Below, piece by piece: positions 39,652-57,229 of a stretch of 64,000 bases of DNA. Position 1 is the stretch's first letter; each line of letters opens with the position of its first letter. This DNA comes from an archaeon (lineage in GTDB: Archaea; Nanobdellota; Nanobdellia; Woesearchaeales; GW2011-AR9). The stretch lies in NCBI GenBank assembly GCA_018670085.1, contig JABHRS010000035.1:70189-134188 (forward strand), in the 5' to 3' direction. The notes under the pieces were generated by a model, which saw only the letters and a list, made by a program, of their open reading frames with translations, was not told the origin of the DNA and did not search any database. Made by a program: the position numbers and the translations under genes.

Positions 39652-40548
39652 CTATTTCTTCACCACTAAACTCATAATCTTACTCACAAGCCTTGCCAAA
39701 GTATAAGCCTCAACACGTGACTGATTTGTAAGATTCAAAGATCTGTTTGGACTATACTGATATACTGGTGCAAATTCTACAATGTCCGCGCCAACAACTT
39801 CTTTCAAAGAAAAACAAAGTTTCAAAATTTCAATAACTTGTTTCCAAAGTAGACCTCCTGGTTCTGGAGTTCCAGTGCCACTAATTACTGATGGATCAAA
39901 TCCGTCAACATCAATTGTGATATACAGTTTTTCAGATTCCAATTTCAATAAAGCAGACTTTACTTTCTCCAGATCAAAATCCCAAGCATAAATTGTTTGA
40001 ACCTTTTCATTTAAATCAACGGCAGCCCTCTCATCTTTATCTTGACTACGAATTCCAACTGCTACAATTTCATGTTTATCAACCAATTGACGCATTACAC
40101 AAGCATGATTAAGTTTGCTTCCATTCCAAGAATCTCTGAAATCACTATGTGCATCAATTTGCAAAATTGCAAAGTTGTCATGTAACTTCTCAGCAGCTTG
40201 AACCAAGCCAATACTTACAGCATGATCTCCTCCAAGTCCAATTACAAATTTATTAGATCCAACAGATTCAACAGATTCCTGAATTTTTGAAAGCATTTCT
40301 TCAGGAGTAGAATCACTAAGTTTCAAAACAGGATTTACGAATACTCCTTTCTCAAAATATTCAATATTGAATTCGGCATCATAGTATTCCAAATGTTCTG
40401 ATGCCTTGATAATTTCAATAGACCCAGAAGCTGCTCCTGCACCATAAGTCAAATCTTTTTCATAACTAATTGGCAAGATCACAAATTTACAATCTTTTAA
40501 GTTTCGATATTCTTTTGGCAATTGCATCCAAGTTAATTCCAAACTCAT
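39652..40548 (-). CDS. speB: Agmatinase (arginase/ureohydrolase family)
   Basis: The Mn-binding motifs are present: GGDHAVSIG, LQIDAHSDF, ITIDVDGFDPS. Its start overlaps the upstream stop by 4 nt. Confidence 0.88.
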   Translation of the reverse strand: MSLELTWMQLPKEYRNLKDCKFVILPISYEKDLTYGAGAASGSIEIIKASEHLEYYDAEFNIEYFEKGVFVNPVLKLSDSTPEEMLSKIQESVESVGSNKFVIGLGGDHAVSIGLVQAAEKLHDNFAILQIDAHSDFRDSWNGSKLNHACVMRQLVDKHEIVAVGIRSQDKDERAAVDLNEKVQTIYAWDFDLEKVKSALLKLESEKLYITIDVDGFDPSVISGTGTPEPGGLLWKQVIEILKLCFSLKEVVGADIVEFAPVYQYSPNRSLNLTNQSRVEAYTLARLVSKIMSLVVKK

Positions 40549-41666: not shown

Positions 41667-42615
41667 TTTTATTCGCTCCAAAAGGTAATAATCCTTCTTC
41701 TTCAAATTGTTCAAGTGCATTAATCATCGCAAGTGGGAATGTAATAGTTACATCGCCATGAACGGTTGCAACATCACTGTCATCCTTTACTTTACCCCAA
41801 GACTTAGCTTCATTAGTTGTAGCTCCGCTCATACTCCCACTAGTTTTATGCGCAGTTGTCATATATACAGCATAAGATGCTCCACCGTTGAGTAAAGTTG
41901 CAAGAATTGCATGATGTTTACTAATACTTCCACCAAGTGCAATTACTGCTTTCTTTTCATCATGGTTACTCGAAAACAAAATGTTTCCAAAATCAGCTAC
42001 TACATCAATTACAAAATCCCGATGTTTTTGTTGAAATAGGTAAAGATGAAATCCAAATGACCCATCTGTTATTGCCGGACAAAAAATTGGAACATTATTT
42101 TTAGCAGCTTGGTACAAAATACTACTCTCATCATCTAAAATTAATCCCAGTTCTCGAAGTAATTCTGAAGGCGTCCATTTTTTCTGCTTTTCATACAGCT
42201 TAGCCAGGACAGGTCCAATCCAATCTTCAAACTTCATATAACTCTCATTTTTAATTAAAACATTTCCAACCCTGTTAACACCTTTTTCATGAAGTTCCAC
42301 ATCATCTGCTGAAAAACTTCCAATAGAAAATTTCTCTCCAAGTGATTTCATAATATCTTCTTCGATTCCACCAACAGTTGTAACTAACACATCAGCGATT
42401 CCAAGTTCCACTAATTGTGCAAAAAAACCACGAAGTCCACAAGAGACCATATTCGATGTGAAAGTTAAATACAGCTTAGCTGAATTTTTTTTCATTTTGA
42501 CAATTACTTCACTTGCTCTTGCAAGTTGCACACTTTGATAACCAACTTTTCCATACTGACCAACTAAGTCAGATACTTTCATCTGTTTTTTCCATTTAAA
42601 ATCTGTTACATACAT
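41659..42615 (-). CDS. dys: Deoxyhypusine synthase
   Basis: TSNMVSCGLRG, TTVGGIEEDI and NEAKSWGKVK (catalytic Lys region) are present. The length of 318 aa is typical for archaeal DHS. Confidence 0.88.
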   Translation of the reverse strand: MYVTDFKWKKQMKVSDLVGQYGKVGYQSVQLARASEVIVKMKKNSAKLYLTFTSNMVSCGLRGFFAQLVELGIADVLVTTVGGIEEDIMKSLGEKFSIGSFSADDVELHEKGVNRVGNVLIKNESYMKFEDWIGPVLAKLYEKQKKWTPSELLRELGLILDDESSILYQAAKNNVPIFCPAITDGSFGFHLYLFQQKHRDFVIDVVADFGNILFSSNHDEKKAVIALGGSISKHHAILATLLNGGASYAVYMTTAHKTSGSMSGATTNEAKSWGKVKDDSDVATVHGDVTITFPLAMINALEQFEEEGLLPFGANKNE

Positions 42616-42831: not shown

Positions 42832-44781
42832 TTAAAGTACTGAATATACTAAATCACAAACCGCTTGTGGTAATCTTAATACAGATGGAACATTTTGAGA
42901 AAATGTAGTGTTTTTGGTTAAAATATCAAAATAGTCACTTGGATCATTATCAACATTAAAGTAAAATGTTCTAATTCCCAGAGCTTCAACTTCCCCAAAT
43001 GCCATAGAGGTATCAATCACAGGGTCACCTGCATCATAACCAGCTGCTACTGGTTTTCCATCAGTGAATACAAATAGGTTTTTTTCTTTAGCTACCATTT
43101 TGTTTAACTCAGCAGCAACGCCACGAATAGCCACTCCATCCGCATTCCCACCCTCTGTTTCTAATGCACCTAAATTTTCCAAACTATCTATTCTGTATAG
43201 ATTTGTTTTCTCAGTGTCTGTTGAAAAAGCATACAATAAAACTCTGTCCCCAACAGCCGGATGAGTTAAAGCTTGGTACAATAACCCAGCAGCTTCCTTT
43301 TCAACATCAATTACTCGCTTTCCATCCGCTAGTTGATTTCCAGTAGACCCACTAATGTCAATTAAAATTACGTTCAATGTATCACGTCTAATAATTTTCT
43401 GACTGTCATAAATTCTAGCATTTGCTGCTAAGTTTGGATCACTAAGTACTTCAATAACAGCCTCCATGTTTAATTGATCAGGATCTTCTTGAAACCTAAC
43501 TCTTTGCATAGCGTTTGGTCTAAGTTTTGCAAAATGTCCAACAATTTGCTCCCTTAAATGGGAATATTTAGCAAGTTCCGTTACAAATTGATCGTTACGT
43601 CCTTCATAAGTTTGGTATTGCAAACTCGCAATGAACATATACGACTTTTTAAGATCATTATAAGTTATAATTTGAACTTTGTTTGGATCTTTTTTATCCT
43701 GCACATCTTCTTTAATAGATCCAGCCTTTGACATGCCAACACCACTGGCTGAATTAACAAAAGGACTTTTTTTACTAAAATTTCCTGCTAACTTTCCCAA
43801 TGTAGATTCAGCTGTATCTGCTGCACTAAAATCATGCACATCACCACGAAATCCAACATAAACTTTTTGAGTTTTATCTTTAGCTCCTTCATCCGAAGCA
43901 CCTGTTCCTTGACCTTGACCTTCACCTTCGCTTTCACCTTTACCTTTACTATCTTTATCAGATGCTGGTGCATTAACTGGTGCATACCTAGAGTTCTCAT
44001 TTGGAAATTCTTGCTCAATTTTTGGAAATGCTTTTGTTACCAGTTCATATAATTCTGGAACATCAGACCATACAACTTCAACTGATCTTCTGTCATGCCT
44101 TGGCCCATAAATATTATTTGTAATCATCATTGCCCGCTCTAGTACATCAGCTGCAATTCTAACACCTATTTTGTTTAATTGATCATTATCAACTTTAAAT
44201 TCTAATGTTTCTCTTTCCACATCCTTTACAGCAGGGTTAAACATTGAAGGTAATCCCTTACAGATAATCTGTGTGGAGAATATATCCATGAATCTTTCAT
44301 GTACAGTTGCTGACAGCTTATTTTTACTTGAATAAAACTGATTTGATCCAACTAATAAATTCACATCTTGTCTTTGTAAATAAAATTGACCATTGTATTC
44401 AATTCTCGCATCATCTGTAATGTTGTATAACGAATGAGCTAGCCCTTCATTTTCAAAAGATTTCAAATATTCTCTTCCATCAACAAAGAATGATCCTTCT
44501 AAGATGTGTAAAATTTCATGAACCAAATCAGAACGGTATAAGCTCATATTCCTGTTATTGAATAAATCTCTTTTTGAATCCTTAAAATCACTTTTTTGAG
44601 AAGGTAAGAAAATTCTTTTCCCATCAGTTTGTGGTCTTCTACCAGAAAGCAGAGGAAATACCCCAAGGTACCCTACCATTACTCTTTCTAATTGGGGTTT
44701 TGCTTTTTTAAAGTTTAAAGCGTACCAATTATCTATCGCACAGATAGCTTGCTTTTCATCATCAGTAAATTCTCTTGACAT
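42832..44781 (-). CDS. VWA-domain protein with intact MIDAS and an N-terminal HExxH putative metallopeptidase-like domain (NorD/CbbO- or DUF2201-like architecture)
   Basis: The C-terminus has VILIDISGSTG (DxSxS), then GGNADG, then VFTDGKP. The N-terminus has DLVHEILHILEG. A Gly/Glu/Lys low-complexity linker lies in the middle. I prefer ATG 44781 (MSREF...); the track start at 44796 is TTG. Confidence 0.8.
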   Translation of the reverse strand: MSREFTDDEKQAICAIDNWYALNFKKAKPQLERVMVGYLGVFPLLSGRRPQTDGKRIFLPSQKSDFKDSKRDLFNNRNMSLYRSDLVHEILHILEGSFFVDGREYLKSFENEGLAHSLYNITDDARIEYNGQFYLQRQDVNLLVGSNQFYSSKNKLSATVHERFMDIFSTQIICKGLPSMFNPAVKDVERETLEFKVDNDQLNKIGVRIAADVLERAMMITNNIYGPRHDRRSVEVVWSDVPELYELVTKAFPKIEQEFPNENSRYAPVNAPASDKDSKGKGESEGEGQGQGTGASDEGAKDKTQKVYVGFRGDVHDFSAADTAESTLGKLAGNFSKKSPFVNSASGVGMSKAGSIKEDVQDKKDPNKVQIITYNDLKKSYMFIASLQYQTYEGRNDQFVTELAKYSHLREQIVGHFAKLRPNAMQRVRFQEDPDQLNMEAVIEVLSDPNLAANARIYDSQKIIRRDTLNVILIDISGSTGNQLADGKRVIDVEKEAAGLLYQALTHPAVGDRVLLYAFSTDTEKTNLYRIDSLENLGALETEGGNADGVAIRGVAAELNKMVAKEKNLFVFTDGKPVAAGYDAGDPVIDTSMAFGEVEALGIRTFYFNVDNDPSDYFDILTKNTTFSQNVPSVLRLPQAVCDLVYSVL

Positions 44782-44934
44782 TTTTATATAACTCAAATAT
44801 TTTTAAACATCTCAAAAATTGTACCCAGAACTAATTTATTTGCTCAAGGAGTTTTCTATCTATTATTAGCAAAAATTGATCCTATTATGCTAACAAAAAA
44901 ACCCCCTCTTTTTGTTAATATTCAATATTGTTAA

Positions 44935-44958
44935 CTCATTTTTAAAGCTTTTGTCAAG
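44935..44958 (-). promoter_or_regulatory. Copy 2 of the shared 24-nt motif (coding strand CTTGACAAAAGCTTTAAAAATGAG), upstream of the VWA gene
   Basis: It matches the motif at 55872-55895 at 21 of 24 positions. It contains a BRE/TATA-like core AAAGCTTTAAAAAT. An adjacent GTTGTCGTAAAAT (44958-44972) resembles GTTTTGTCGTAATTT at 55835-55850. Confidence 0.4.
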
Positions 44959-45033
44959 ATTTTACGACAACCAAGATTAAAACCAGTTTACAGTCCTATG
45001 TGGGTGTTATAAATGTTAACTTAGACCATAATT

Positions 45034-46293
45034 TTACAGGTTTATCTCCCTACTTTCCAAAGTTCCAATTCTGTATTTATCTCCACCGATCAGATCATCA
45101 TCTTCAGTAAATCCGTCGACAATATGTTCCGCCCATTGGTTTACTACACCAGATTCCAATGCTTCAGGCAATTTTTCAAAGAAAAACTGATCAGCATTAT
45201 GACGTTGAGAACTGTTGTAAGCTTGGTAAATTAAATCAATATCACTTGACAGGAATATTTTCATCTGTGAAATGGATAAAAGTGGTTCAAACTGATCAAA
45301 AATATCCTTTTGTTGATGAGACAAGTTAGAAGAATTTTGATAAACCTCAATATAATCTCTGCAAGAATCTTGAACATATAAATGATTCTGATTTTTATCC
45401 GCACCCGATAAAACAGCTATTAAATCCCTCATAAATTTGTCCTGGAGATTCAATAGTCTTGCAGATTTATATCCATCAGCTATTCTTGCATATTCACTAT
45501 CTTGCATAACAGGGATTATTTTTGTTATTTCATCCAGCATAAGTTCATTTAATATGCCTTTCCAATATGCTGTCTTTTCATCAGATGGATCATTTCCTAA
45601 AAAATTAATGAATTCAGTTGGAACAATATATGGAATTGATGGCATTCGTAAATATGCCAAAACTTCAGCAGCATTTTTTGCAGTTTCAAAACCATTATCA
45701 ATCACATATTTAACAGCATTAGCAAAACCAACTGCAAATAAAGTGTTAGGCACCATATTCAGATAACGAATACTTTCAAATAATTTTATTTTACCATCAT
45801 CACTATCAATTTCTTGATAAATCCCAAAAAGCTCCTTTAGATGATGTTCAATAAAAGAATTATTTTCTAACGAAAAGTCATCATAATTTGCAAAATTTCT
45901 TGCATCTTCCAACATCTTTTCAAAATTGGATAGTTCAGGATTATTTTCTATGTCAATTTCAGAAAATAATCTTAATGTAATTCCAGTTAAAATTGGTTCT
46001 GAGTTAATCATGTTAATCTCCTCATCAGAAAAAGTTCTAGCAGCTGCAAATGTTTTAGTGACATCAACATTTCCTAAAAAATCACGATAAATGTCATCAT
46101 TTTCAAAATAAGTATTGAACTTAATGAAACTATTATAATTAGATTCCCCAACTGTTTCTATAAAAGTAGACAGCCCATCTTCTTGTAGTATTCGTTCCAA
46201 ATCATATGTATTCGCTTTAGCACAAAGTTTGATGTACTTTTTAGCATGCAAATCATCAGCCTGTATAGTATCAGATATTATTTCACCATTCAT
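45034..46293 (-). CDS. Paralog 5 (about 419 aa) of the family with the conserved C-terminal module FFEKLPEALESGVVNQWAEHIVDGFTEDDDLIGGDKYRI
   Basis: I place the start at ATG 46293, which forms ATGA with the upstream stop, with GAGGTG 8-10 nt upstream. The protein is alpha-helical by composition. No known domain recognised. Confidence 0.8.
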   Translation of the reverse strand: MNGEIISDTIQADDLHAKKYIKLCAKANTYDLERILQEDGLSTFIETVGESNYNSFIKFNTYFENDDIYRDFLGNVDVTKTFAAARTFSDEEINMINSEPILTGITLRLFSEIDIENNPELSNFEKMLEDARNFANYDDFSLENNSFIEHHLKELFGIYQEIDSDDGKIKLFESIRYLNMVPNTLFAVGFANAVKYVIDNGFETAKNAAEVLAYLRMPSIPYIVPTEFINFLGNDPSDEKTAYWKGILNELMLDEITKIIPVMQDSEYARIADGYKSARLLNLQDKFMRDLIAVLSGADKNQNHLYVQDSCRDYIEVYQNSSNLSHQQKDIFDQFEPLLSISQMKIFLSSDIDLIYQAYNSSQRHNADQFFFEKLPEALESGVVNQWAEHIVDGFTEDDDLIGGDKYRIGTLESREINL

Positions 46294-47759
46294 TTGCAAG
46301 ACACCTCAAGTTCTCGACTATAGATCGGTCCAATTCTGTATTTGTCTCCACCAATCACATCTTTATCTTCAAGATTGCATCTATCAATTATACTCTCAGC
46401 CCACTCAGATACAATTCCTTGTTCCATAACTCGAGGTAAATTTTCAAAAAAATTATCTTCAAAATGACCAATCATGGCATAACCAAAAGCTTCACTTACT
46501 ATAGAAAATTCATCGGAAGGCAATTTTAAAAAATAACTCATTGGACTTTTATCAAAATGACCCACTGTTTGGGTAAAAAATGAAGAATTACTACAATAAT
46601 TGTCATAACCTGAATATTTTGAAGTATCGAGATTTACAGCTGTGTAGAATAAGCCAATATCTTTCTCAGACAGAGATTTAGGTTCAAATCTCCACAAGAT
46701 AAAAGCCTCCCTTAAATAATCAAAATTTCCTGAGACTGCTTCGAGCAATTTACTAACAAAAGTATTGCCTCCATTCTCCCACCAAACAGAATTTCTTGTA
46801 CTTGCAAAATTTCTAGCAATCTCAATATCAGAACAAATACCATCAACTAGCAAATCTTTAACCTCACTATTTTTATCTGTCCACAATGCATAAGCTTTTT
46901 GACTAATTGCTGCATCTTGCTTTAACATACTAGCTAATTCAATCCCGATGGAGTTATACAAATTTGAACCACAATTTCCAATAATATATTCCGCCAACTC
47001 CAGATCATCTCCTATCAGATCAAGAATTTCAGCTCTCAAATGGTTGATTTTTGGATTTACTGATTCAAAACTAGTGCTAGTCCCAAAAAAAGACATAAAT
47101 ATCTTTTTAGCTCCAGCATCAACTTTTAATGATCTCAGAATATCCTTAGAAAATAATTTAAATCTACCATCTTCATTCAGAGACTCTATCGCATTAAAAA
47201 TTTCACTATAATCTCCTTTTAAACTAGCAATTAATTGATCTTTGTTTCTTATCACAAATTCCAAAGGCAGATCTGAAAAAGATCTATGTCTTAAAGTATA
47301 ACTTTTAGACATATTTTCAATCAGTTTAGATTCAAAAGAGATATATCTTTTCTGATCCCAATAGTTCACTACATCAAGAGAAAACTTCCCTGTCCAATCA
47401 GAGTTAAGATGAGTACCCAAATTATTATGTAAATACTCAAATCTCCAATCATCAAATGATACTCCACCAGTGAGCATATCAGTTTCACCGATATACTTAG
47501 CCAAAATATTACCAGTAAGTTCTAAACTTTCTTTAGTCCAATATTTTAAGGCCTGATATGCAAAATTATGAACCTCAATAAGATTATTATTTTCAGGTCT
47601 ATCTAAGCTAGAATGATTATCCAAACTTTCCTCCAATGAACTAGCTACTAACTTAAATTTGCTAAGTCCTAATCCTTCTTCTTCCTCAGATAACCCATAT
47701 CCAAAAGATTTAGTTAGATCAGAAAAACCAGCTTCAATTAATTTATCATCAAGACTCAT
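46290..47759 (-). CDS. Paralog 4 (about 489 aa); C-terminal module FFENLPRVMEQGIVSEWAESIIDRCNLEDKDVIGGDKYRI
   Basis: It is a full-length paralog of 49528..51018 with the same N-terminus, MSLDDKLIEAGFSDLTKS. There is an ATGA overlap with the upstream gene, and GGAGGTGA lies upstream. Confidence 0.8.
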   Translation of the reverse strand: MSLDDKLIEAGFSDLTKSFGYGLSEEEEGLGLSKFKLVASSLEESLDNHSSLDRPENNNLIEVHNFAYQALKYWTKESLELTGNILAKYIGETDMLTGGVSFDDWRFEYLHNNLGTHLNSDWTGKFSLDVVNYWDQKRYISFESKLIENMSKSYTLRHRSFSDLPLEFVIRNKDQLIASLKGDYSEIFNAIESLNEDGRFKLFSKDILRSLKVDAGAKKIFMSFFGTSTSFESVNPKINHLRAEILDLIGDDLELAEYIIGNCGSNLYNSIGIELASMLKQDAAISQKAYALWTDKNSEVKDLLVDGICSDIEIARNFASTRNSVWWENGGNTFVSKLLEAVSGNFDYLREAFILWRFEPKSLSEKDIGLFYTAVNLDTSKYSGYDNYCSNSSFFTQTVGHFDKSPMSYFLKLPSDEFSIVSEAFGYAMIGHFEDNFFENLPRVMEQGIVSEWAESIIDRCNLEDKDVIGGDKYRIGPIYSRELEVSCK

Positions 47760-49531
47760 TTGCAACTCACCTCCACTTCTCGGTAATTTCCAATAGTATC
47801 TGTTGCAACCCGATACCTATCTCCACCGATTAAATCTGGATCAAGTTCATTGCAGCTTTCAATAATATGTTCAGTCCAACTTTGATGATCACCATTTCTT
47901 ACCATGATAGCAAAATTTTCAAAAAAATCTTCATGTATCCAACCTGGGCTTAACAATTCATGAGCATGATACATTCTTTCCCTCTCGTGAGCAGGTATTT
48001 GCATAAACTCTTTAACCGATAAATATTCAACAGCTTTGTTCATATAATCCACATTACCCCTATTTTCATTAGATCTTTCATTCAAAAAATTTTCAAACAG
48101 TTGAAATTTATCATCAGAAAAATCACTTTCGATCCAGTCCTTCAAATCTTCAACATATTCTAAAAGAGCAGGTCTTGACAATGAATACACAGTAGTAATT
48201 GAGATTAATTGAGATGCATCAGCTTTTGCTATAGTTTCAATTGGAATATGTTTCAATACCTCAGAAAATCCATCATATACAGATTGATAATCAACATCTG
48301 TTAAATGAGTCAACCTGTTAAAATCATGAAATAACTTAGAGTACATTTCAAGCGCCTTCTTTCTAGTTTCCACATCTCTATCAACAGAATAAAACCTTTT
48401 AACAAAATCTTTATCAAGTCCTATATTGTTAGAAAATTGATATAAATGCATTAAATCGCGTGAATATCCTTCATCATTAACAAATTGTACTCTCGAATTT
48501 TCAGGAAATACATTTTCAGGATCTTCTAATTTAAGTTTCCAGTATGATTCTTCTTTCACTGAAGATATATCTCTGCAATCATGTTTAGAATTATCTTGAG
48601 CATTAAGTGCTTCAGTTAAAATTGAAAAATAGATATTAGAAAAATTGATATTAGAAAATTTATCCAGAAACTCATTTGTTAATTCTTTTTTACTTAAAAC
48701 AGAAGTCATCAACAATTCTTGGTTCATTATCAACTCAGAATTACTAAGTTCAGAAATAGCTTTAACCAAAAAAGGTGAATCCTTTAATCCTTCAATTAAT
48801 TGTGGCAATACTCTTTTTCTTCTTCTTTGATAGAGACTATTTGTGATTGCATTGTAGGAATGTTCAACACTTTTACTAACTGATCCCAGGACCAGATCTT
48901 CATAACGATCATGTAAACTCAGTACAATCCCATTTCCAACAGATGGTTTATTATTAAGAGAAATCAAAAATTCATAAGCTAATTTCGGATCATTTTCTAT
49001 TTCTTTATTAACTTCATCAAAATTAAACCACCTAGAATAATCAACAGATCCACACAGTTTAGAATAAGCATCAGGTACATCAAAATGAGATGATTTTAAC
49101 AAACTAGCATACAAGCTAACATCATGACATATCTCTTTTAATTCATCCCTAACACTCAATAATTTAAGAGCAGACCATCCCTTAAATGTTATGTGAATAA
49201 AATCATTTTTACTAATACCAATATCTTCATCTATTCCTTTGTGATCAACAATATTTTCTAATAATTTTTTTCTAATCGGCAAAAACCTCCAAAGTGGTAA
49301 ATCTTTACCTAGTTCGAAAGAGTGCGATCGGTTCAATCCTTTAACCAAATCTGTTGCATACTTAATCATCCTAGGATATTTCCAAATTTTTAAAGCCAAA
49401 GAACAAAGTTCAGATGAATCAACTATTTGCTCTAAGAATGACTCCGCCTGTGGATAAAATTCACTAGAACTCATTAAAGAACCAGCTTTTAAAGCATCCA
49501 ATGAATCTGGATTTTCAAATTTATTACTCAT
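47756..49531 (-). CDS. Paralog 3 (591 aa); C-terminal module FFENFAIMVRNGDHQSWTEHIIESCNELDPDLIGGDRYRV
   Basis: There is an ATGA overlap with the upstream gene. The roughly 500-aa N-terminal region is divergent. Confidence 0.8.
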   Translation of the reverse strand: MSNKFENPDSLDALKAGSLMSSSEFYPQAESFLEQIVDSSELCSLALKIWKYPRMIKYATDLVKGLNRSHSFELGKDLPLWRFLPIRKKLLENIVDHKGIDEDIGISKNDFIHITFKGWSALKLLSVRDELKEICHDVSLYASLLKSSHFDVPDAYSKLCGSVDYSRWFNFDEVNKEIENDPKLAYEFLISLNNKPSVGNGIVLSLHDRYEDLVLGSVSKSVEHSYNAITNSLYQRRRKRVLPQLIEGLKDSPFLVKAISELSNSELIMNQELLMTSVLSKKELTNEFLDKFSNINFSNIYFSILTEALNAQDNSKHDCRDISSVKEESYWKLKLEDPENVFPENSRVQFVNDEGYSRDLMHLYQFSNNIGLDKDFVKRFYSVDRDVETRKKALEMYSKLFHDFNRLTHLTDVDYQSVYDGFSEVLKHIPIETIAKADASQLISITTVYSLSRPALLEYVEDLKDWIESDFSDDKFQLFENFLNERSNENRGNVDYMNKAVEYLSVKEFMQIPAHERERMYHAHELLSPGWIHEDFFENFAIMVRNGDHQSWTEHIIESCNELDPDLIGGDRYRVATDTIGNYREVEVSCK

Positions 49532-51018
49532 TTAGCCACCATCCCAAGTTCGTGCCTATAACTTACAGCTTCAATCCTATACCGATCTCCACCAATAAAT
49601 CCATCTTTATCTTCTTCACATCTCTCAATTATATTCTCAGCCCACTCATATACAGTGCCTTCTTCCAATATTTCTGGAAACATAATGTTAAATTCATTTA
49701 CAAAATGATGATCTAGGGAATAATCATAAGCCTTAATTGCTGAATCCATCGCATGTAAAGGTAATTGTAAAAATATTTTAACATGTGATTTATCTAAATT
49801 TTTCATTAACTCATAAAAACCATCAGATGATTTAGAATAACTTTCAAATCCAGAATGTTTTGAAGCATCAAGGTCAACTGCAGTGTACAACAAGTTTAAA
49901 CATTTCTCAGTTAATTGATCATTATCAAAATCCCAGGAACAAATCCCATTTTTTAAATAAGCAAAATTTCCTGAAACTGTTTGTAATAATTTAAAGAGTG
50001 AATCTTTTCCTTCATTTTTCCACCAAGCTTGTCTTCTATCTTCACAATATTTATTCGTAACTTCAGCATCAGTGCAGATTCCATCAATTAATAAATCACT
50101 AACTTCAGCACTCATAGTTTCAGTGTTATTATTCCAATGATCATAAATTTGCCCACATTTTGTTGCATCTTGTTTTAAAATATTAGCTAATTCAACCCCA
50201 ATATGGTTATATAAATTTGTAGGCCAGTTAGTAATAATATCCCAAGCTAAACCTAAATCACCTCCAAGTATATCAATGATCTCATCTTTTAAATAACTAA
50301 TTTTCATATTTCCAACTTTAAAATTATTACTAATATCTCCTAAATTAAGTAAAAAAGTCTTTTTATCTTCATTATCAATTTTTAATGAACTCACAATATC
50401 TTTAGAAAATAATTCAAATCTACCTTTATCAGTGTTCAAAGAGCTTAACACAGCAAAAATATCAAGATGATTTCCGTTTAATTTAGAGATCAGTTCATCT
50501 TTATTTCTCAATAAAAAATCTAAAGGTAAATTTGAAAAAGATTCATACTTTAAAGTATCATTTTTGAAAATATTTTCAATTAATTTAGATTCGAACTTAG
50601 TATATTTAGCCTCATCCCAAGTAAGTACTGCTTCATAAGAAAACTTCTCTACTCCATCAAGATTAAGAAAACTATCTAGAGTATTATGTAAATACTCAAA
50701 TCTCCAATTATCAAGCACCATCCCAGAAGTGAATAAACTACATTCAGGAAAGTACTTAGCCAAAATATTTCCAGTGAGTTCCAAACTTTCTTTAGTCCAT
50801 CTTTTTAACGCAGAATATGCAAAATTATTAGCATTTCCAAGATTTACACATTCAGGATCATCTGTATCACACAACTGATACAAACTTTCTTCCAATGATT
50901 TAGCAAAAAGTTCAAATTGGCTAAACTCTAATCCTCCTTCTTCTTCAGGCAACCCATACTTCAAAGATTTAGTTAGATCAGAAAAACCAGCTTCAATTAA
51001 TTTATCATCAAGACTCAT
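49528..51018 (-). CDS. Paralog 2 (496 aa); C-terminal module FNIMFPEILEEGTVYEWAENIIERCEEDKDGFIGGDRYRI
   Basis: There is an ATGA overlap with the upstream gene, and GATGGTGG lies upstream. It is collinear with paralog 4 along its whole length. Confidence 0.8.
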   Translation of the reverse strand: MSLDDKLIEAGFSDLTKSLKYGLPEEEGGLEFSQFELFAKSLEESLYQLCDTDDPECVNLGNANNFAYSALKRWTKESLELTGNILAKYFPECSLFTSGMVLDNWRFEYLHNTLDSFLNLDGVEKFSYEAVLTWDEAKYTKFESKLIENIFKNDTLKYESFSNLPLDFLLRNKDELISKLNGNHLDIFAVLSSLNTDKGRFELFSKDIVSSLKIDNEDKKTFLLNLGDISNNFKVGNMKISYLKDEIIDILGGDLGLAWDIITNWPTNLYNHIGVELANILKQDATKCGQIYDHWNNNTETMSAEVSDLLIDGICTDAEVTNKYCEDRRQAWWKNEGKDSLFKLLQTVSGNFAYLKNGICSWDFDNDQLTEKCLNLLYTAVDLDASKHSGFESYSKSSDGFYELMKNLDKSHVKIFLQLPLHAMDSAIKAYDYSLDHHFVNEFNIMFPEILEEGTVYEWAENIIERCEEDKDGFIGGDRYRIEAVSYRHELGMVAK

Positions 51019-54000
51019 TTGGCCACCATCACACTATAAATCATAACAGGATCAACTAATCTCCCAACACTCTCTCGATACCTATCCCCACCAATAAAAT
51101 CATCATCTTCTGTGAACTGATCAATAATTGCCAAAGACCAATCTTCAGCAGTACCTTCTTGAATCATTTGAGATAAATTTTCTTCAAAATATCTCTCTGC
51201 ACCATGAGTTTTAACTATTCTATAAGCATTACTTACTGAGATAAACTCTGAGATAGAAAGCGAGACTAGTTCTTCACTTGGAACTCTATAAGAAATATTT
51301 TTCCAATCATTAATATAACCTTCAGGAATATTAGAATACTGTTGATATAATTTTTGAACTATCCCATCTTGATTAAAATAACCAGTTAATGAAGTATTTT
51401 CTTGTTCCAAATAATTAACTAATCCTCTCATTAGACCACTATTAACGTTTTGTGTAAAACGATAGAAATCTTTTGCTAATAAAAATTCATCCGCGGAAAA
51501 ACCAATTAAATCATCAAATGATAAATCCATTGCCAAACATTTCCAAACATTATGATCCCCAGGATCAACTGTGTCTAAATGATCTTTGATTTTTTGATAT
51601 TTGGAACCAACTATTGAAAAAGCTAACATTAAATCATTTTTATTCTTTAGTTCTTTATTCACATCATTGTAAAAATCAAGCACAGTAAGCCCATTAGAAA
51701 ATAATTTAGAACTTATTCCAAAAGTCATCTCTTCAGGTGATAATTTAACTAATGCTTCCAAAGAAAATTTAACCATAAATGACCCAAAAGTTTCTTTATG
51801 TTCTTCAAGTATAGCACTCTCAACTTTATCTAAATCTTGATATAATTTAAGCTGATTTTCTAACTCTAATTTGATTTGATCCTTATCTTTTTCACCAATA
51901 TCATCAAAAACAGATAATTCATTTCTACCCCATTTCCGGTCATAAACACCTACATGTCGTAATAAGGCATATTCATTATTCCCAAGTTCTAACTCTAACA
52001 CTTTTTCACGGCCAATGATAGGGTTATCAATTAATTCTAAGATAGTTGAACAATGTTTAGAGTCAACTCTGTAAAAGTGGGAAACCAATCTACGATCCCC
52101 AGCAACTTTTAGTGCATCCTTATGTTCAAGATTCTTATTTTTGTGTAACCTGTTTGCTACTTGGATATATTTTGGACCATGTTCTACTGTAGCATTCATC
52201 ATTTCTTCTAGTCTAACACTTCTGTGAAAATTACTAAAGCCAGCAGAACCAAATAACAAACTAGTTTTCATTTCTTGGATCAACACATTTCGATCTACTT
52301 TACTCAACCCAAAATAGAAATCAGTAAATGGTTTTAAAGAAACTTCTTCATCTCTTCCAATTTCAAAAGATCTAAGACTGTTAGCTTTTCTCCAATCTTC
52401 ACTAAAAGCTGCAAAACCTTTATCTGAAAAATCACTATATCGTCTTAATTGTAATCCAATTGAAGATGCCTCAAATCTATAGCATTTTTCTTGCTCAGAG
52501 TCATGTAGTTTAGAAAATTTTTCTAATAACTTATTTATAGAAAGAGTTCCATCCAAAATACGAAGATCAAAGTAGTTTTTCTTCACCATTCTTTGAACAA
52601 TTGAGAAATATTTGGGGTCAACTTCTCTAATTAAATAAGCACAACCTCCAACGTGACCTGAAGCATCTACCAACACTTCCCTCTCTGTGTTAGTTAATTT
52701 TGCAACATAAGAAACACTATCACAATTCTTCTTAGCCAGTTGGACTCTCTTAACCAACCCATACTCTAATCCATTAAAATCTGACATAATTTCACAAACC
52801 TCCTCAACTCTAGAAATTGATCCAGATTCCAAATGTTCTTCCTCAGATTCAATTTTAGCTCCTAACTGCTCTCTACTAGCTATGATAGACAGTTTCTTCA
52901 ACTTATCAGCATCAACTAACATAGCAACTGATTTACCAAGTTTTAACAAAATATTATTCAATCCACGTCTTTCTAATTGTTTTAAAGACATAATTGATTC
53001 AAAGCTTGCGGACTTAGAAACTTGCAAATAATCAACTGAAGATTTTGAAACCCCAGAGAACCCAATATAAAAAGCGGCAGGTAATTTTGATTCATCAACC
53101 AATTCATTCAGAGATTTTGCCCCAATTTTTTGCCAATCATCTAAATTTTGAATTACCTCAAGAGCTCCAGGCCCAGCATCATCATTACAAAAATTATTAT
53201 CAAGGTAAGAATCAACCCCATTTCTAAAATCCAGATTTAATTCTTTATAAAAATCTCTAAATCCACTACTAAACTCATCACTGGAAATAGAGTCAGAGTC
53301 CTTGGTCCAAACTTCATAAAAAGATCTTACTGTATCCAAAAAGTGATTATTAATCTCCCTAAATTTTTGATCCTGTAAATCCACTACTCTCTTCTGAAAT
53401 TTATCTTCTTCAAAACAATCATTCATTCTCTTAATTAACCCAGAACTATCACCATCAGCTGCTTTTTTTATTTCAGAGATCCATCTAGGTGGAGCACCAT
53501 TATCTTTAGCAACAGCTGCATGAATTTTTGGTAAAAAATTTCTTGACAATTGATTTAATAATCGTTTATTCCCTTTAGCTGTAGAATATAATTTTTTCAA
53601 TAAAGGGTTACCAAGAATATAAATCCCCCTCTCACCTACAAAGGACCGCAGATTTTCATAAAATTCCACTTTCTCTTGTTTAGCTCCAGCGCCAACTAAA
53701 TTTTTCAAATACTGTTTAGATAATCCTTCAGAAAATCTTGCTTCCTCAACAAATCGCTCAGTAGTCAAAAATCTTGATGCTGGAACTTGATCAATATACC
53801 TAATATAAACTTGTTGAAGTGAATCTGAACTACTTTCAATCAATGTTTCAATTTTTTTGGAAACAGACAAAACATTTTTTCGTTTCATCCCAGTTGCCAT
53901 TGAAGATAACAAATTTGATTTCATTAACTTCTGAAAATAAGATCTTGATCCTTTTTTTCCACTCTTAGCGTAGATCATAAAAGCTTCAAAACGCTGATCA

Positions 54001-54461
54001 AATCCTAGCTCAGTATAATTTCTACTCAATAAATCCAAACTTTCATTAGTAGATTTTATCACGCTTCGATATTCCCTACCGTTCAAATCTCCAAGTTGAT
54101 CAAAAACTAAGTTTAATAGTTCAGGGGATTTCTCAAATTCCCTTTTTTCTGCTAACAAGAATGTTTCATCCATTCGATATTGCAGTTCAGAGATATTTTC
54201 TGCATCGTCTTCAATTGAATGTTTATTAACCAAATTTTCTAAAGCGCCAATAACTATTTCAGAATTAGTATTAGAAGAATTAGCTAATTTATGAGCATAA
54301 TGTAGTACATTATTAACATCATATTTTAAAGATAAAGATAATTTATCAAATAATTTCAAAATAGAATCCAAATTGAATTTTGATAAAGCAGGTATCTCAT
54401 CAACAAGTTCATCACTAAAAATAGCTCCTAATTCATCATCAACAATATATCCAAGTGCCAT
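51015..54461 (-). CDS. Paralog 1 (1148 aa); large helical protein ending in the module YFEENLSQMIQEGTAEDWSLAIIDQFTEDDDFIGGDRYRE
   Basis: It is the first gene of the coupled array. GGCGGTGATG lies upstream of its ATG. An oligo-T run (coding strand) at 54501-54523 separates it from the AAA+ gene. Confidence 0.8.
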   Translation of the reverse strand: MALGYIVDDELGAIFSDELVDEIPALSKFNLDSILKLFDKLSLSLKYDVNNVLHYAHKLANSSNTNSEIVIGALENLVNKHSIEDDAENISELQYRMDETFLLAEKREFEKSPELLNLVFDQLGDLNGREYRSVIKSTNESLDLLSRNYTELGFDQRFEAFMIYAKSGKKGSRSYFQKLMKSNLLSSMATGMKRKNVLSVSKKIETLIESSSDSLQQVYIRYIDQVPASRFLTTERFVEEARFSEGLSKQYLKNLVGAGAKQEKVEFYENLRSFVGERGIYILGNPLLKKLYSTAKGNKRLLNQLSRNFLPKIHAAVAKDNGAPPRWISEIKKAADGDSSGLIKRMNDCFEEDKFQKRVVDLQDQKFREINNHFLDTVRSFYEVWTKDSDSISSDEFSSGFRDFYKELNLDFRNGVDSYLDNNFCNDDAGPGALEVIQNLDDWQKIGAKSLNELVDESKLPAAFYIGFSGVSKSSVDYLQVSKSASFESIMSLKQLERRGLNNILLKLGKSVAMLVDADKLKKLSIIASREQLGAKIESEEEHLESGSISRVEEVCEIMSDFNGLEYGLVKRVQLAKKNCDSVSYVAKLTNTEREVLVDASGHVGGCAYLIREVDPKYFSIVQRMVKKNYFDLRILDGTLSINKLLEKFSKLHDSEQEKCYRFEASSIGLQLRRYSDFSDKGFAAFSEDWRKANSLRSFEIGRDEEVSLKPFTDFYFGLSKVDRNVLIQEMKTSLLFGSAGFSNFHRSVRLEEMMNATVEHGPKYIQVANRLHKNKNLEHKDALKVAGDRRLVSHFYRVDSKHCSTILELIDNPIIGREKVLELELGNNEYALLRHVGVYDRKWGRNELSVFDDIGEKDKDQIKLELENQLKLYQDLDKVESAILEEHKETFGSFMVKFSLEALVKLSPEEMTFGISSKLFSNGLTVLDFYNDVNKELKNKNDLMLAFSIVGSKYQKIKDHLDTVDPGDHNVWKCLAMDLSFDDLIGFSADEFLLAKDFYRFTQNVNSGLMRGLVNYLEQENTSLTGYFNQDGIVQKLYQQYSNIPEGYINDWKNISYRVPSEELVSLSISEFISVSNAYRIVKTHGAERYFEENLSQMIQEGTAEDWSLAIIDQFTEDDDFIGGDRYRESVGRLVDPVMIYSVMVAK

Positions 54462-54543: not shown

Positions 54544-55782
54544 TTAAGGAGTCTGATTAAAGTTAGTTCTCTGTTGTCTTGCCGGAATTAAATTAAGATG
54601 TTCAGCAATGGAAGTTACTGCATCGCGCCTAGTTGCACCATCTCCAGACCCTAAATTCTTAGAACCATATTGTCCAAAACAAATCTGATCAATGCATATA
54701 CGAGTGCTATGAATACTGGCCTTACCAGAACTCATTCCCATCCCAATCAATGAATCATATTCCTTAGCAGCAGCTCTTTGAATCCGCTGCGAAGGTAAAT
54801 GTAAATCAACTTGACTCATTTTTCCAAAATCACTCAAATAAGCAACAACTGCATCTGGAATATTACTAGTTCCACTTAAAGAAAATTTTTTAGTAACTCC
54901 AATAAATTCTGCTAAGTTTAATGCAAATCTTGCTCTTTCAGTGCCATCAAGTGGAAGCAAGGGGGATACTGGCCCAGGTACAGCTGATGCTGCAGCAATT
55001 GGTGCTGACCCAGAACCTGCAACTGCTGGCAAAAATGTTTGATACTTCAATGCACCACTCGGTAATTCAGCATTTTCTCCACTAAAAAAGGAAGTCCAAC
55101 TATCATTAACTTTCTTAAAAAAAGCCAATCTTTTCTCTGAATCATCATAACTAATTGCTCTTTCTTCAAAAGGTAATTCACTTTGATAATTCCAAGCTAA
55201 TGCAGCTTCAAGAGCTGCTGATAAATATTTGAATTCAACATGCACAAATCTATCCGCAACAGAATCTTCTAGTTCCCTTTTATCCAATCGGTTAGTTGGG
55301 TTATAAGATAAAACTCCAAAAAATCCCTCTTTTGCAGAAATCACTGTACCATCACGACGAGTAATTCTTCGTCTATCATCAAATAATGAGTTCAATCTTT
55401 TTTGAACAGTACCAGGTAATTGATCAACTTCATCAGCATAAAAAATTCCACCAGCTGCAGCAGCCTTAGTAGCCACCCCATTTTCCCAAACAGTTTTGGT
55501 TCCGCCGTTACTTTTTAATCCAGGAAATCCAACTAACCCTGATTCAGTCATAAATTCATCACAAGTAATATCATATAATGCTGGTAACCCTGGATCCTTC
55601 CAGTTACCAAAGAAATTTCCCTGAACAACCTTACCAAATTGTTCAACTAATTCCGTTCTTCCAACACCCGGCGGGCCAGACATTGCTAAATGCTCATTAT
55701 TAGTGTAAGTTAAGAATAATCGTTGTACTTCATCAATTCCTTCTGGTGATAGCTGATTTGCAATATATTTCATGTCTTCCAT
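54544..55782 (-). CDS. MoxR/AAA_5-type AAA+ ATPase (CbbQ/NorQ/GvpN-like core) with an atypical Walker A GPPGVGRT and a roughly 200-aa C-terminal extension
   Basis: Walker A is SGPPGVGRT; I confirmed the Arg codon AGA by hand at 55657-55659. Walker B is GGIFYADEVDQL. Sensor-1 region is VLSYNPT. SVADRF is also present. An Ala/Pro/Ser-rich linker and a further domain follow. Confidence 0.8.
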   Translation of the reverse strand: MEDMKYIANQLSPEGIDEVQRLFLTYTNNEHLAMSGPPGVGRTELVEQFGKVVQGNFFGNWKDPGLPALYDITCDEFMTESGLVGFPGLKSNGGTKTVWENGVATKAAAAGGIFYADEVDQLPGTVQKRLNSLFDDRRRITRRDGTVISAKEGFFGVLSYNPTNRLDKRELEDSVADRFVHVEFKYLSAALEAALAWNYQSELPFEERAISYDDSEKRLAFFKKVNDSWTSFFSGENAELPSGALKYQTFLPAVAGSGSAPIAAASAVPGPVSPLLPLDGTERARFALNLAEFIGVTKKFSLSGTSNIPDAVVAYLSDFGKMSQVDLHLPSQRIQRAAAKEYDSLIGMGMSSGKASIHSTRICIDQICFGQYGSKNLGSGDGATRRDAVTSIAEHLNLIPARQQRTNFNQTP

Positions 55783-55978: not shown

Positions 55979-57229
55979 TTAATTATTAATTTTAGCAACT
56001 TTAAGTCGGCCTTTCTTATCTAATTGCCTTGACAAGAATGAAGTTAATACATAATCATGATCATAAAGCAAATGTGCAACCACTTCCTTAAGAGAAAATG
56101 CATCTTTGTAATCAATAATTGCCTGAATTTTCTCATCATCAAAAGCATATTCACAGAAAAATTCCACACAAAATTTCTTTTCATCATCTATTCTTTGTTT
56201 CCAATCATCAAGTTCATAATGTAATCTAGAATCCCATTTTCGGATCACACCTTGATACAAACGCATCGGATGGGTTTCATCTTCGAAATCAGTTACAGCC
56301 CAAATTCCTGCGTGTTCAAGTTTGTACTTTTTAAAAGCCAATTGTAATACAGCTTTCACATCAAAAATTCCTTTATCAGCTGAAGTGTTACAAATATACA
56401 AAAATGCTTCATAAGTTGCTTTACAACATCTAGTAAATAATCTCTCAGTTGCTTTCGATTTATCACTATATTTCCAATCAAAAACTTTAACTCCATAATT
56501 TTCAATTAGAAATTGTTTAGCAGAGTTAATAATGAACAAATTTTTAAAACATTGATATAGTCTCCCTCTTTCATCAAAACAATCAATACTTAAAATGTTA
56601 TGAATTCGATCAGCAAGTTTTACTTGAATCGCTCTTTCACGTGTTTCAAGATCTTTACAGTTAAAGATATAAGAGATAGATTTGTAGTAAAAATCTCGTT
56701 TTAATCTAGTTAGCAGTTTTAATGTTTCAATAATTTTTCCAACAGCAGAAGAGTCAATATTTTCTTTTTCACAAAAATCATACAAATCCTTTTCAAATTT
56801 AGAAACAAGTTTAATCTCATACTCATCTAGTAAAACCTTTCCTTCAGCAGATTTATCATCCAGACCTTTTTCTTTTTTATAAATATCAACCTGCTCTTCG
56901 ATATGATCATGCATTAGCCCACAAAGTAAAGTAATTGTATCTTTAACTCCACTACGTTTTAAATTCAAGACCACATTTAGTGGATGTAAGAAAGATTCAA
57001 AACCATTTTTTCTTGGAGGCATTTCAGAATACAACTCCTGGGATAGGCCATAAAGAAATTCACATAAAGGAAATAGAGGATCACGAATATCAAACATCGT
57101 CTCAACTCTTCTAACTAATTTTAAAGGTTCCCAAGCCCGCAAAGATTCAAAACGTTCTTTTCTTTTTTTTACGCACTCATCAGGATTCATAATATTCACA
57201 TGCCACACAAGATCCAATTCTTCACTCAT
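55979..57229 (-). CDS. HD-domain phosphohydrolase with RelA/SpoT/Mesh1-type motif set, plus an unknown C-terminal domain
   Basis: FLHPLNVVLNL..., then LLCGLMHDHIEEQVD, then VKLADRIHNILSI. This matches the HP / HD(x)xE[DE] / KLADRxHN order of (p)ppGpp hydrolase domains. About 170 aa follow with no recognised motif. Confidence 0.7.
   Translation of the reverse strand: MSEELDLVWHVNIMNPDECVKKRKERFESLRAWEPLKLVRRVETMFDIRDPLFPLCEFLYGLSQELYSEMPPRKNGFESFLHPLNVVLNLKRSGVKDTITLLCGLMHDHIEEQVDIYKKEKGLDDKSAEGKVLLDEYEIKLVSKFEKDLYDFCEKENIDSSAVGKIIETLKLLTRLKRDFYYKSISYIFNCKDLETRERAIQVKLADRIHNILSIDCFDERGRLYQCFKNLFIINSAKQFLIENYGVKVFDWKYSDKSKATERLFTRCCKATYEAFLYICNTSADKGIFDVKAVLQLAFKKYKLEHAGIWAVTDFEDETHPMRLYQGVIRKWDSRLHYELDDWKQRIDDEKKFCVEFFCEYAFDDEKIQAIIDYKDAFSLKEVVAHLLYDHDYVLTSFLSRQLDKKGRLKVAKINN

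Follow-up and report, generated by a model that had tools for sequence, protein, structure and literature searches.

Five consecutive genes in the window (the whole 64,000-nucleotide stretch of archaeal DNA analysed here) encode tandem paralogs, p1 to p5, which end in a common C-terminal module and lie between the genes for a MoxR-class AAA+ ATPase and a VWA protein. On balance we favour the view that these paralogs are clients or adaptors of the flanking motor, on which they would dock by means of the module and its tail. To our knowledge, MoxR-VWA chaperones are widespread and their targets are known for a handful only: Rubisco, cNOR, the chelatases and RavA-ViaA. Here the partners are genetically obvious, being a helical family whose members share a C-terminal module and end in a short tail specific to the locus, and the system is a tractable one in which to study how a VWA adaptor and an AAA+ ring recognize a partner, with the MIDAS, the pore and the N-domain as the possible routes. 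It occupies roughly 13 kb of the window amid chromosomal housekeeping genes, and this expenditure in small-genome archaea implies an important function. Three sequence families not described before emerge from the analysis, namely the module, a 30-aa repeat and the VWA protein's N-domain with HExxH.

The five ORFs form a run on the minus strand (45034-54461). The ATGs at 46293 and 47759 are most likely the true start codons of p1 and p2, and with these starts an ATGA overlap is found at 4/4 paralog junctions, each with a GGTGG or GAGGTG Shine-Dalgarno-like element upstream. The overlap explains the terminal ...VSCK and ...MVAK common to the paralogs. Together, the overlaps and the internal Shine-Dalgarno-like elements indicate that the paralog genes would be expressed in a coupled, co-stoichiometric manner. 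Since a spacer with a terminator-like element lies between p1 and the VWA gene, these two may be transcribed separately.

Table 1. Features of the gene cluster and of the C-terminal modules (positions in the window)
Feature	Position	Strand	Length and remarks
MoxR-class AAA+ ATPase (by sequence)	54544..55782	-	412 aa; closest to NorQ/CbbQ
p5	51015..54461	-	1148 aa; large, first-position member
p4	49528..51018	-	496 aa; all-helical (predicted), degenerate 30-aa repeats and C-terminal module
p3	47756..49531	-	591 aa; repeat-containing, with C-terminal module (BLASTP, HMM match)
p2	46290..47759	-	491 aa as ORF, 489 aa from ATG at 47759; recent duplicate of p4
p1	45034..46293	-	421 aa as ORF, 419 aa from ATG at 46293; related to the C-terminal third of p5 but shortened
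Spacer between p1 and VWA gene	44782..45033	-	252 nt, AT-rich; possible terminator-like element AACAAAAAGAGGGGGTTTTTTTGTT, read from the sequence
NorD/CbbO-like VWA protein	42832..44781	-	649 aa counted from ATG
p5 C-terminal module	51069..51338	-	HMM match aa 1042-1131
p4 C-terminal module	49564..49833	-	HMM match aa 396-485; AF2
p3 C-terminal module	47801..48055	-	HMM match aa 493-577
p2 C-terminal module	46332..46586	-	HMM match aa 392-476
p1 C-terminal module	45061..45330	-	HMM match aa 322-411; helical bundle and IGGDKYR tail

The sequence-only reading had described five neighbouring paralogs with a common C-terminal module, and this is confirmed: a stretch of about 70-95 aa (the module itself is about 90 aa) is common to all five, with pairwise BLASTP E values of 1e-7 to 7e-15 for pairs otherwise without similarity. 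Of the two motifs that had been assigned to it, IGGD[KR]YR is identical across the five window paralogs, while W-x-E-x-I-I-[DE] is approximate only (WAEHIVD in p1, WSLAIID in p5). The module did not prove to be a known domain with an unrelated role. Searches of Pfam, NCBIfam, PADLOC and PHROGs returned no significant match for the five paralogs, the sole Pfam match being a sub-threshold SidC_C in p2 (E 0.068; 14 bits, the cut-off being 27), and a Foldseek comparison of the AF2 model of the p1 module with the PDB gave no fold match with E below 1 (best E 1.9). In two independent AF2 models IGGD[KR]YR sits in a low-confidence tail after a confident helical bundle; for the last 150 aa of p1 the pLDDT is above 90 in the bundle and 50-58 in the tail. 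The tail carrying the conserved motif is predicted to be flexible or disordered.

Across the family a Trp is invariant and a Phe, an Ile, two Gly and a Tyr are nearly so; the Asp of GGD, which had been taken as invariant, is not among them. This Asp is present in only 31/70 family members, and whole arrays use GGGNYR, GGxQ..RR, RTGQSLDEVMS or DGVLQEV in place of the GGD tail, so that it cannot be a universal MIDAS ligand. The tail motif is homogeneous inside one locus and different from locus to locus, a pattern which fits a docking element. Gene conversion as the cause of the alike modules and tails is ruled out by the randomised synonymous sites: where residues are identical in the five modules, 63% of the codons are identical versus 59% expected from codon usage. 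A codon identity this near to expectation means that selection on the protein keeps modules and tails alike.

The N-terminal bodies, thought at first to be strongly diverged except between p2 and p4, are more closely connected than that. The likeness of p2 and p4 stands (51% identity over the full length), but p1 is homologous to p5 (BLASTP E 3e-13 over 180 aa; by jackhmmer, p5 residues 860-1129 align with p1 residues 123-408), and p3 shares with p2 and p4 the degenerate 30-aa repeats. Small family members carry a 30-aa repeat in the crisp form SYxAGxxWxDxRFxPxAExIAxGVAxD, and the N-terminal region of p3 (8-100) matches it. The p5 body consists of domain A (about 90-366), domain B (about 546-810) and the region shared with p1 (860-1040), followed by the module. 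By jackhmmer it is homologous to the large gene after the ATPase at three other loci (L002, L043, L045) and also, in L048, which is a locus lacking the ATPase, to the large module protein. The bodies are thus built of recurring domains and are not arbitrary. No toxin, nuclease or peptidase domains were found in them in Pfam and other profile searches. The AF2 model of full-length p4 is entirely helical (about 34 helices, pLDDT 81.4, pTM 0.70), with low confidence from residue 471. An alpha-solenoid (HEAT/ARM-like) was considered for p4 on the strength of this helical model and the repeats of the small members; Foldseek gave weak, non-significant importin/CRM1/VPS35-type matches (E at least 0.18, TM at most 0.3). 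The proteins of the family are most likely acidic, cytosolic and, as predicted, all-helical.

The ATPase matches Pfam AAA_5 (E 3.6e-16, 59.9 bits against a 22-bit cut-off), and Walker A (GPPGVG.TE) and Walker B (DE) motifs can be read directly in its sequence, features which place it, by sequence, among the MoxR-class AAA+ proteins (AAA_5, NorQ/CbbQ/GvpN group). Its best PDB matches are NorQ (9qhd, E 2e-13), CbbQ (6l1q/5c3c) and also midasin. Identity to its 75 homologs is at most 45-49%, and there is a conserved C-terminal extension of about 200 aa. Assignment to the NorQ/CbbQ subfamily proper, whose members have about 270 aa and accompany a nor or cbb target, was rejected: the protein has 412 aa, of which only residues 24-206 align to NorQ, and no nor or cbb genes were found in the window.

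The VWA protein matches NorD in the PDB (9qhd_G, E 9e-13 over aa 420-626), while its Pfam VWA/VWA_2 matches fall under the gathering cut-off. The MIDAS is intact, and its elements D475-I-S-G-S479 (DxSxS), N.DG and DG.P are kept throughout the 35 homologs from archaea and spirochaetes. The protein is accordingly grouped with the NorD/CbbO-like VWA adaptors, and NorQ/NorD and CbbQ are the closest sequence relatives of the pair among solved structures. An HExxH with a downstream D124/E128 (N..D.RIE) is invariant in the N-domain of all 35 homologs; this domain gave no Pfam or PDB profile match and fell in no peptidase family.

When 1.84 billion representative proteins were scanned exhaustively by HMMER with the module HMM (E<=1e-3), only 45 matched; of these, 44 are credible, and the other, P0102, looks spurious as a family member. 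The module forms the extreme C-terminus in 44/44 credible members and is not restricted to the window. The NorQ/CbbQ-like AAA_5 ATPase adjoins module genes in 8/8 archaeal loci that are readable downstream of the ATPase, and a VWA gene is present in 7/7 of those whose contig reaches far enough, the locus left out (L008) having one module gene, the first, inside which the contig ends. The number of module genes per locus ranges from 1 to at least 6: there is one in L001 and L045, two in L002, three in L013, five at the window locus (ATPase, module genes, VWA gene) and in L004 (ATPase, VWA gene, module genes), and at least six around the ATPase in L043, which also has the VWA gene. On short metagenome contigs, unbroken runs of as many as six module genes occur. 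The family is rare, previously undescribed, archaeal (DPANN-type) and almost always encoded beside the ATPase/VWA pair, and the system hardly occurs outside DPANN-type archaea with small genomes.

We propose that the motor would consist of a NorQ/CbbQ-like MoxR AAA+ hexamer and a NorD/CbbO-like VWA protein with an HExxH domain. The helical paralogs would be dedicated partners of this two-gene motor, either clients or interchangeable adaptors, roles which cannot be told apart from sequence. The shared module and tail would be the common docking element through which one motor engages several different helical bodies, and the motor would then remodel, assemble or release these, using ATP. Physical docking of the tail or module on the motor, its site (the MIDAS, a NorD-like N-domain or the ATPase) and the remodelling outcome are what we infer. 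Of the earlier notion, that a constant handle at the C-terminus goes with the neighbouring VWA/ATPase system, the general logic survives (8/8 loci with the ATPase, 7/7 with the VWA gene, a predicted flexible tail, locus-specific tails), but the invariant Asp does not.

Several observations were counted against this proposal. The L048 module protein has no ATPase or VWA gene within 10 kb, a spacer separates p1 from the VWA gene, and the N-terminal 50 aa of p2 and p4 are 72% identical versus only about 48% for their modules. Spirochaete loci with motor homologs have no module genes; their VWA homologs bear an N-terminal extension of about 525 aa, which has no detectable homology to the module family.

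The specific idea that the GGD-loop Asp is the sixth ligand of the VWA MIDAS metal, the tail serving as a handle like that of an integrin ligand, is weakened and now seems improbable. It accords with the conserved, intact MIDAS, with the position of the motif in a predicted flexible, exposed tail, as is usual for MIDAS ligands, with the binding of a target carboxylate by the CbbO MIDAS (PMC4660213) and with the occurrence of the Asp in all five window paralogs. Yet Gly, Ser, His or Ala replaces the Asp in whole arrays (GGGNYR in six genes of L047, GGAQ in L049), the tail types of L004 and L013 lack it, and some tails have no acidic residue after GG (IGGAQAIRRVA). It is likewise unlikely that a hetero-oligomeric helical scaffold has the module proteins as its subunits, with the module joining the paralogs and the MoxR-VWA pair acting only as an assembly or disassembly chaperone. 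Translational coupling of the five genes suggests a fixed stoichiometry, the predicted architecture is entirely helical and arrays reach six or more genes; ATV p618/p892, acting on a helical tail protein, offers a loose parallel, and PMC7159879 cites a part played by MoxR-VWA in assembling archaeal virus tails. The variation in copy number between loci argues against a fixed complex, and one would more readily associate a disordered tail motif, uniform within a locus, with a docking peptide than with an oligomerisation domain.

We regard as less probable still that the tail is a processing site, at which the HExxH domain of the VWA protein would cleave at or near the Gly-Gly and so mature or release the helical proteins. 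The conservation of HExxH and the downstream Asp/Glu (35/35 homologs) and the short, predicted disordered tail, with its GG and often 2-7 residues after YR, are in favour of it, as are the MoxR-linked peptide-processing systems, in which zincin peptidases act on variable precursors with conserved C-termini (PMC7159879). Set against these are the lack of a peptidase-family match for the domain in Pfam or PDB, the Tyr and Arg after GG, which are conserved as strongly as GG itself, and the spirochaete homologs, which keep the HExxH at loci with no module genes. The tandem, diversified paralogs and the presence of MoxR-VWA modules in conflict systems (PMC7159879) might also recall a polymorphic toxin, effector or conflict system with the variable bodies as effectors, but this we consider very improbable, and the earlier reading of a polymorphic family has no support. 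PADLOC gave nothing of weight for the window beyond a negligible match for the ATPase; signal peptides and small immunity-like genes are absent; the bodies, devoid of toxin domains, are made of recurring helical domains; and the polarity is reversed, since in polymorphic toxins it is the N-terminus that is constant and the C-terminal toxin that varies. A MoxR and VWA core is likewise joined to variable, fast-diversifying third components in the ternary MoxR-VWA conflict systems (Kaur et al. 2020, PMC7159879); the window, in contrast, has only a sub-threshold match to the conflict-system domain bpMoxR (in the ATPase, E 0.005; 16.4 bits, the cut-off being 27) and no effector domains, and its type of host is a DPANN-type archaeon with a housekeeping gene context.

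Returning to docking on the motor, we compared the system with known ones, and it would represent a variant of the MoxR-VWA chaperone theme not described before. As in NorQ/NorD, the chaperone that inserts FeB into cNOR, an AAA_5 MoxR ATPase is paired with a VWA protein of about 650 aa composed of an N-domain, a linker and, at the C-terminus, a MIDAS-containing VWA domain, the partner or target gene is in the same cluster, and the best PDB sequence matches are to this pair. Unlike it, the window has no nor genes, the ATPase has the additional C-terminal region, the VWA N-domain with its HExxH has no sequence match to the NorD N-domain, and in place of a membrane metalloenzyme the neighbouring genes encode 1 to 6 or more soluble helical paralogs. 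NorD has been proposed to hold its target at two points (PMC13036017). The Rubisco activase CbbQ/CbbO, again a MoxR hexamer with one VWA adaptor, is the best precedent for a C-terminal tail handle: it requires an acidic residue at the surface, to which the CbbO MIDAS binds, as well as the C-terminal peptide of the Rubisco large subunit, and its ATPase is stimulated by an 11-mer C-terminal peptide (PMC4660213). The window locus differs in that there is no Rubisco, the conserved C-terminal element belongs to a whole paralog family and the acidic residue is not conserved throughout.

Rea1/Midasin with Rsa4 and Ytm1 also has AAA_5-type modules and one motor that serves several partners through a common handle, its MIDAS domain binding a conserved element common to different assembly factors. 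Midasin, however, is a eukaryotic protein made as one giant polypeptide; what serves as its handle is not a helical bundle and tail but a UBL domain in which a Glu is conserved, and its partners are not homologous to the window paralogs. The Cdc48/p97 cofactors (UBX, SHP, VIM and PUB/PUL binders) are alike by analogy only, in combining a constant docking module with variable bodies, and belong with another AAA+ clade and other docking modules. In Cdc48/p97, the constant docking module lets one AAA+ machine serve many tasks. More tentatively, and with considerable doubt, the window system could be an unrecognised AAA+ hub of DPANN-type archaea, with a NorQD-like MoxR-VWA(-HExxH) motor, an expandable set of interchangeable helical adaptors and a lineage-specific C-terminal tail code. 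Were this so, the p97-cofactor or midasin-UBL principle would have a counterpart in prokaryotes. The size of an array and the type of its tails would then determine which cellular targets are covered, host-interaction functions in these episymbionts possibly among them.

The five consecutive minus-strand ORFs between the ATPase and VWA genes encode proteins of 421, 491, 591, 496 and 1148 amino acids (p1 to p5, numbered from the VWA side). BLASTP comparison bore out the reading of these ORFs as tandem paralogs with a common C-terminal module, every pair sharing the last ~70–95 residues with E values from 1e-7 to 7e-15. The IGGD[KR]YR motif is the same in all five, whereas W-x-E-x-I-I-[DE], proposed alongside it, holds only approximately (WAEHIVD in p1, WSLAIID in p5). 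Full-length likeness is confined to p2 and p4 (51% identity), in keeping with the claim that the other bodies have diverged, but this divergence is not complete: residues 860–1129 of p5 correspond to p1, and p2, p3 and p4 carry degenerate copies of a 30-residue repeat, SYxAGxxWxDxRFxPxAExIAxGVAxD. Small family members (e.g. P0107, P0086, P0087, P0109) carry it in crisp form; it has no Pfam match. The remainder of p5 comprises domain A (~90–366) and domain B (~546–810); its body has homologs in the large gene following the ATPase in three other loci (L002, L043, L045), in proteins P0089 and P0098, and in the large module protein of L048, a locus lacking a nearby ATPase. The bodies are not free-varying. 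All five proteins are acidic (pI 4.4–5.4), and none has a signal peptide. The coordinates of these and neighbouring features are collected below.

Features of the paralog array and its surroundings
Feature	Position	Strand	Remarks
Polyamine/hypusine set	39652-42615	-	three overlapping genes immediately downstream of VWA gene
VWA protein	42832-44781		downstream of p1, beyond the spacer
AT-rich spacer	44782-45033		252 nt, p1 to VWA gene; holds terminator-like element AACAAAAAGAGGGGGTTTTTTTGTT
Paralogs p1 to p5	45034-54461	-	five consecutive ORFs
109-aa ORF	45437-45766	+	antisense within p1; most likely spurious
AAA_5/MoxR ATPase	54544-55782		412 aa; directly upstream of paralogs
Weak HD + RelA/SpoT-like signature	55979-57229	-	416 aa; directly upstream of ATPase, same strand
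YkuD-type L,D-transpeptidase domain protein	61787-62569	+	

The ORF caller's TTG starts for p1 and p2 are probably artefacts. If p1 begins at the ATG at 46293 and p2 at the one at 47759, all four paralog junctions are ATGA overlaps, each preceded 8–10 nt upstream by GGTGG or GAGGTG; the five genes are thus translationally coupled. The overlaps also explain the final residues, ...VSCK in p2 and p3 and ...MVAK in p4 and p5. Given the terminator-like element in the spacer, the VWA gene may be driven by a promoter of its own. Many module proteins start with a short acidic motif, M-[STNK]-[LI]-[ED]-[ED]-hydrophobic (MSLDDKL in p2 and p4; MSIEDKV, MNIEEML and MTLEDTL in other members), and the VWA proteins begin similarly (MTLADLF, MNLENLF, MSLDHLF); in the window it is found at the starts of p1, p2 and p4 (the last at 51018). 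The ATGA overlap partly dictates its second residue, and the remainder of the motif could represent a further shared element.

Codon identity at identical module residues is 63%, against 59% expected from codon usage. Recent gene conversion was thus ruled out as the cause of the module identity, and the likeness is kept by selection on the protein. Since even the closest pair, p2 and p4, is 51% identical at the protein level, synonymous sites are saturated. These two recent duplicates are most conserved over their first 50 residues (72% identity), falling to 28–48% over the last 100, module included.

A search for known domains of unrelated role yielded no significant match in Pfam, NCBIfam, PADLOC or PHROGs, either for p1 to p5 or for members with the crisp repeat, and Foldseek comparison of the module model with the PDB gave no significant hit (best E 1.9). 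The family is rare. An exhaustive HMMER scan of 1.84 billion representative proteins with a five-sequence module profile (E<=1e-3) matched 45, one of which (P0102) looks spurious; in the other 44, which range from 69 to 1148 amino acids, the match ends a few residues from the C-terminus. The exhaustive scan was needed, as word-indexed searches with module alignments recovered only p2/p4 fragments and one extra protein. With a narrower module alignment, the locus search picked up 13 short contigs, which stem from three metagenome samples related to each other. The sole invariant residue of the module is a Trp, with Phe(-16), Ile(+4) and the second Gly of GG nearly invariant (52-sequence alignment), as are the first Gly and the Tyr (46-sequence alignment). 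The Asp of GGD, described as invariant in the sequence-only reading, is so among the window paralogs but follows GG in 31 of 70 family members. Elsewhere Gly (13), Ser (4), His (3) or another residue takes its place, and in some clades GG.YR is missing entirely. One member (L049, 1168-2163) has two tandem module-like domains (residues 154–245 and 245–325), indicating that the helical bundle can be duplicated internally.

AlphaFold2 predicted the last 150 residues of p1 (46-sequence alignment; mean pLDDT 81.8, pTM 0.68) as a helical bundle with pLDDT >90 at residues 40–125. The bundle stops just before the motif, and IGGDKYR and the rest of the tail have pLDDT 50–58. Full-length p4 is predicted to be all-helical, with ~34 helices (pLDDT 81.4, pTM 0.70) and a low-confidence tail from residue 471 onward; Foldseek against the PDB returned nothing significant for it (best E 0.18), the matches being importin, CRM1 and VPS35-type solenoids with TM <=0.3.

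Tracing ATPase homologs (at most 45–49% identical) and module proteins to their contigs revealed the loci listed below. All eight archaeal loci that can be read beyond the ATPase, on its downstream side, contain module genes; the VWA gene is seen in the seven not cut short by a contig end. On short contigs up to six module genes stand in a row (L047, L049, L050, L055). The one exception found is L048, where neither an ATPase nor a VWA gene lies within 10 kb of the module protein. The tail is a disordered, conserved motif, alike among the diverged paralogs of one locus and different between lineages; it behaves like a locus-specific code, the pattern expected of a peptide fitting a lineage-specific partner.

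Gene order and tail motif in the window and in other loci with homologs (number of tail copies in brackets)
Locus	Gene order	Tail motif
Window	ATPase, 5 module genes, VWA	IGGD[KR]YR (5)
L001/L007 (Woesearchaeota MAG)	ATPase, 1 module gene, VWA	
L002/L003	ATPase, 2 module genes, VWA	
L004/5/9 (Woesearchaeota)	ATPase, VWA, 5 module genes	L004: RTGQSLDEVMS (5; one of them LTGQSLSEIMS)
L008	ATPase, 1 large module gene cut by contig end	
L013	ATPase, 1 module gene, VWA, 2 module genes	[DN]GVL.EV (3)
L043	at least 2 module genes, ATPase, 4 module genes, VWA	IGGD[TS]Y[RED] (6)
L045	ATPase, 1 module gene, VWA	
L047		IGGGNYREV (6)
L049		IGGxQ..RR.A (5; one of them IGGTNFRWEAA)

Spirochaetota and Leptospiraceae possess a homologous ATPase-VWA pair without module genes. 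Their VWA protein consists of an extra N-terminal ~525 amino acids joined to a full-length homolog of the archaeal protein. A Rosetta-stone fusion found no support: aligned by hhalign with the module, with domains A and B of p5 and with the 30-residue repeat, this extension scored probabilities of <=3%. In the bacterial loci (L010–L042, e.g. the pair at 9530-14884 of L023) the extension ends in a conserved PD[YF]WYR, and the ATPase has an N-terminal extension of ~150 residues with a weak HTH_23 match. These differences suggest transfer between the domains, with the partner role solved differently.

Among solved structures, those nearest to the ATPase in sequence are NorQ (9qhd, E 2e-13), CbbQ and midasin, and residues 420–626 of the VWA protein are closest to NorD (9qhd_G, E 9e-13). 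The MIDAS of the VWA domain is complete (D475-x-S477-x-S479, N.DG, DG.P). In the N-domain TDG..I.LP, NRN, H88-E-x-x-H92 and N..D.RIE are invariant (35 archaeal plus spirochaete homologs). A supposed resemblance of this HExxH domain to DUF2201_N was not borne out by Pfam and PDB profile searches, which gave no match to a peptidase family or to anything else.

In PMC4660213, the CbbO MIDAS is described as binding a surface carboxylate of Rubisco, the C-terminal peptide of the large subunit being also required and its 11-mer stimulating the ATPase. PMC13036017 has the NorD VWA finger inserting into the NorQ pore and proposes a two-point grip of NorD on its target, through the N-domain and through the MIDAS or linker. 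By analogy, and from the gene linkage, we lean towards p1 to p5 being partners of the flanking NorQD-like motor, acting as clients or interchangeable adaptors. Docking would run through the module and tail that they have in common, and candidate sites for it are the ATPase, the HExxH N-domain and the MIDAS.

That the GGD Asp itself binds the VWA MIDAS, as first supposed, is unlikely at this locus and fails as a general rule because the residue is not conserved in the family. We are similarly doubtful that the paralogs form a hetero-oligomeric helical scaffold put together by the chaperone. Cleavage by the HExxH domain at the GG of the tail seems less probable still, and a toxin or conflict system, which finds no support in domains, context or polarity, is very improbable. 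The ATPase-VWA core belongs to an already known kind of system. That such a core is coupled to an expandable tandem array of helical paralogs, which share a C-terminal module and have a locus-specific tail, appears undescribed, as does the HExxH N-domain on the VWA partner; the papers found on MoxR/VWA with DUF2201 or DPANN deal with other MoxR-VWA systems, and none, in the portions available, describes this one. Array and motor together constitute a real, rare system which is open to experiment.

The rest of the window is housekeeping and archaeal-looking, with genes for CDC48, an ATP-dependent DNA ligase, deoxyhypusine synthase, agmatinase and an SRP54-type GTPase among them; GC content is ~32%. 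Neither a tRNA gene nor an Rfam match at gathering threshold turned up anywhere in the 64 kb. The HD-domain gene upstream of the ATPase is not conserved, the other loci examined lacking it. The polyamine/hypusine set comprises deoxyhypusine synthase, a PLP-dependent Orn/Arg decarboxylase-like protein and an arginase-family agmatinase. The YkuD-type L,D-transpeptidase domain, in an otherwise archaeal-looking window, is unusual for archaea.
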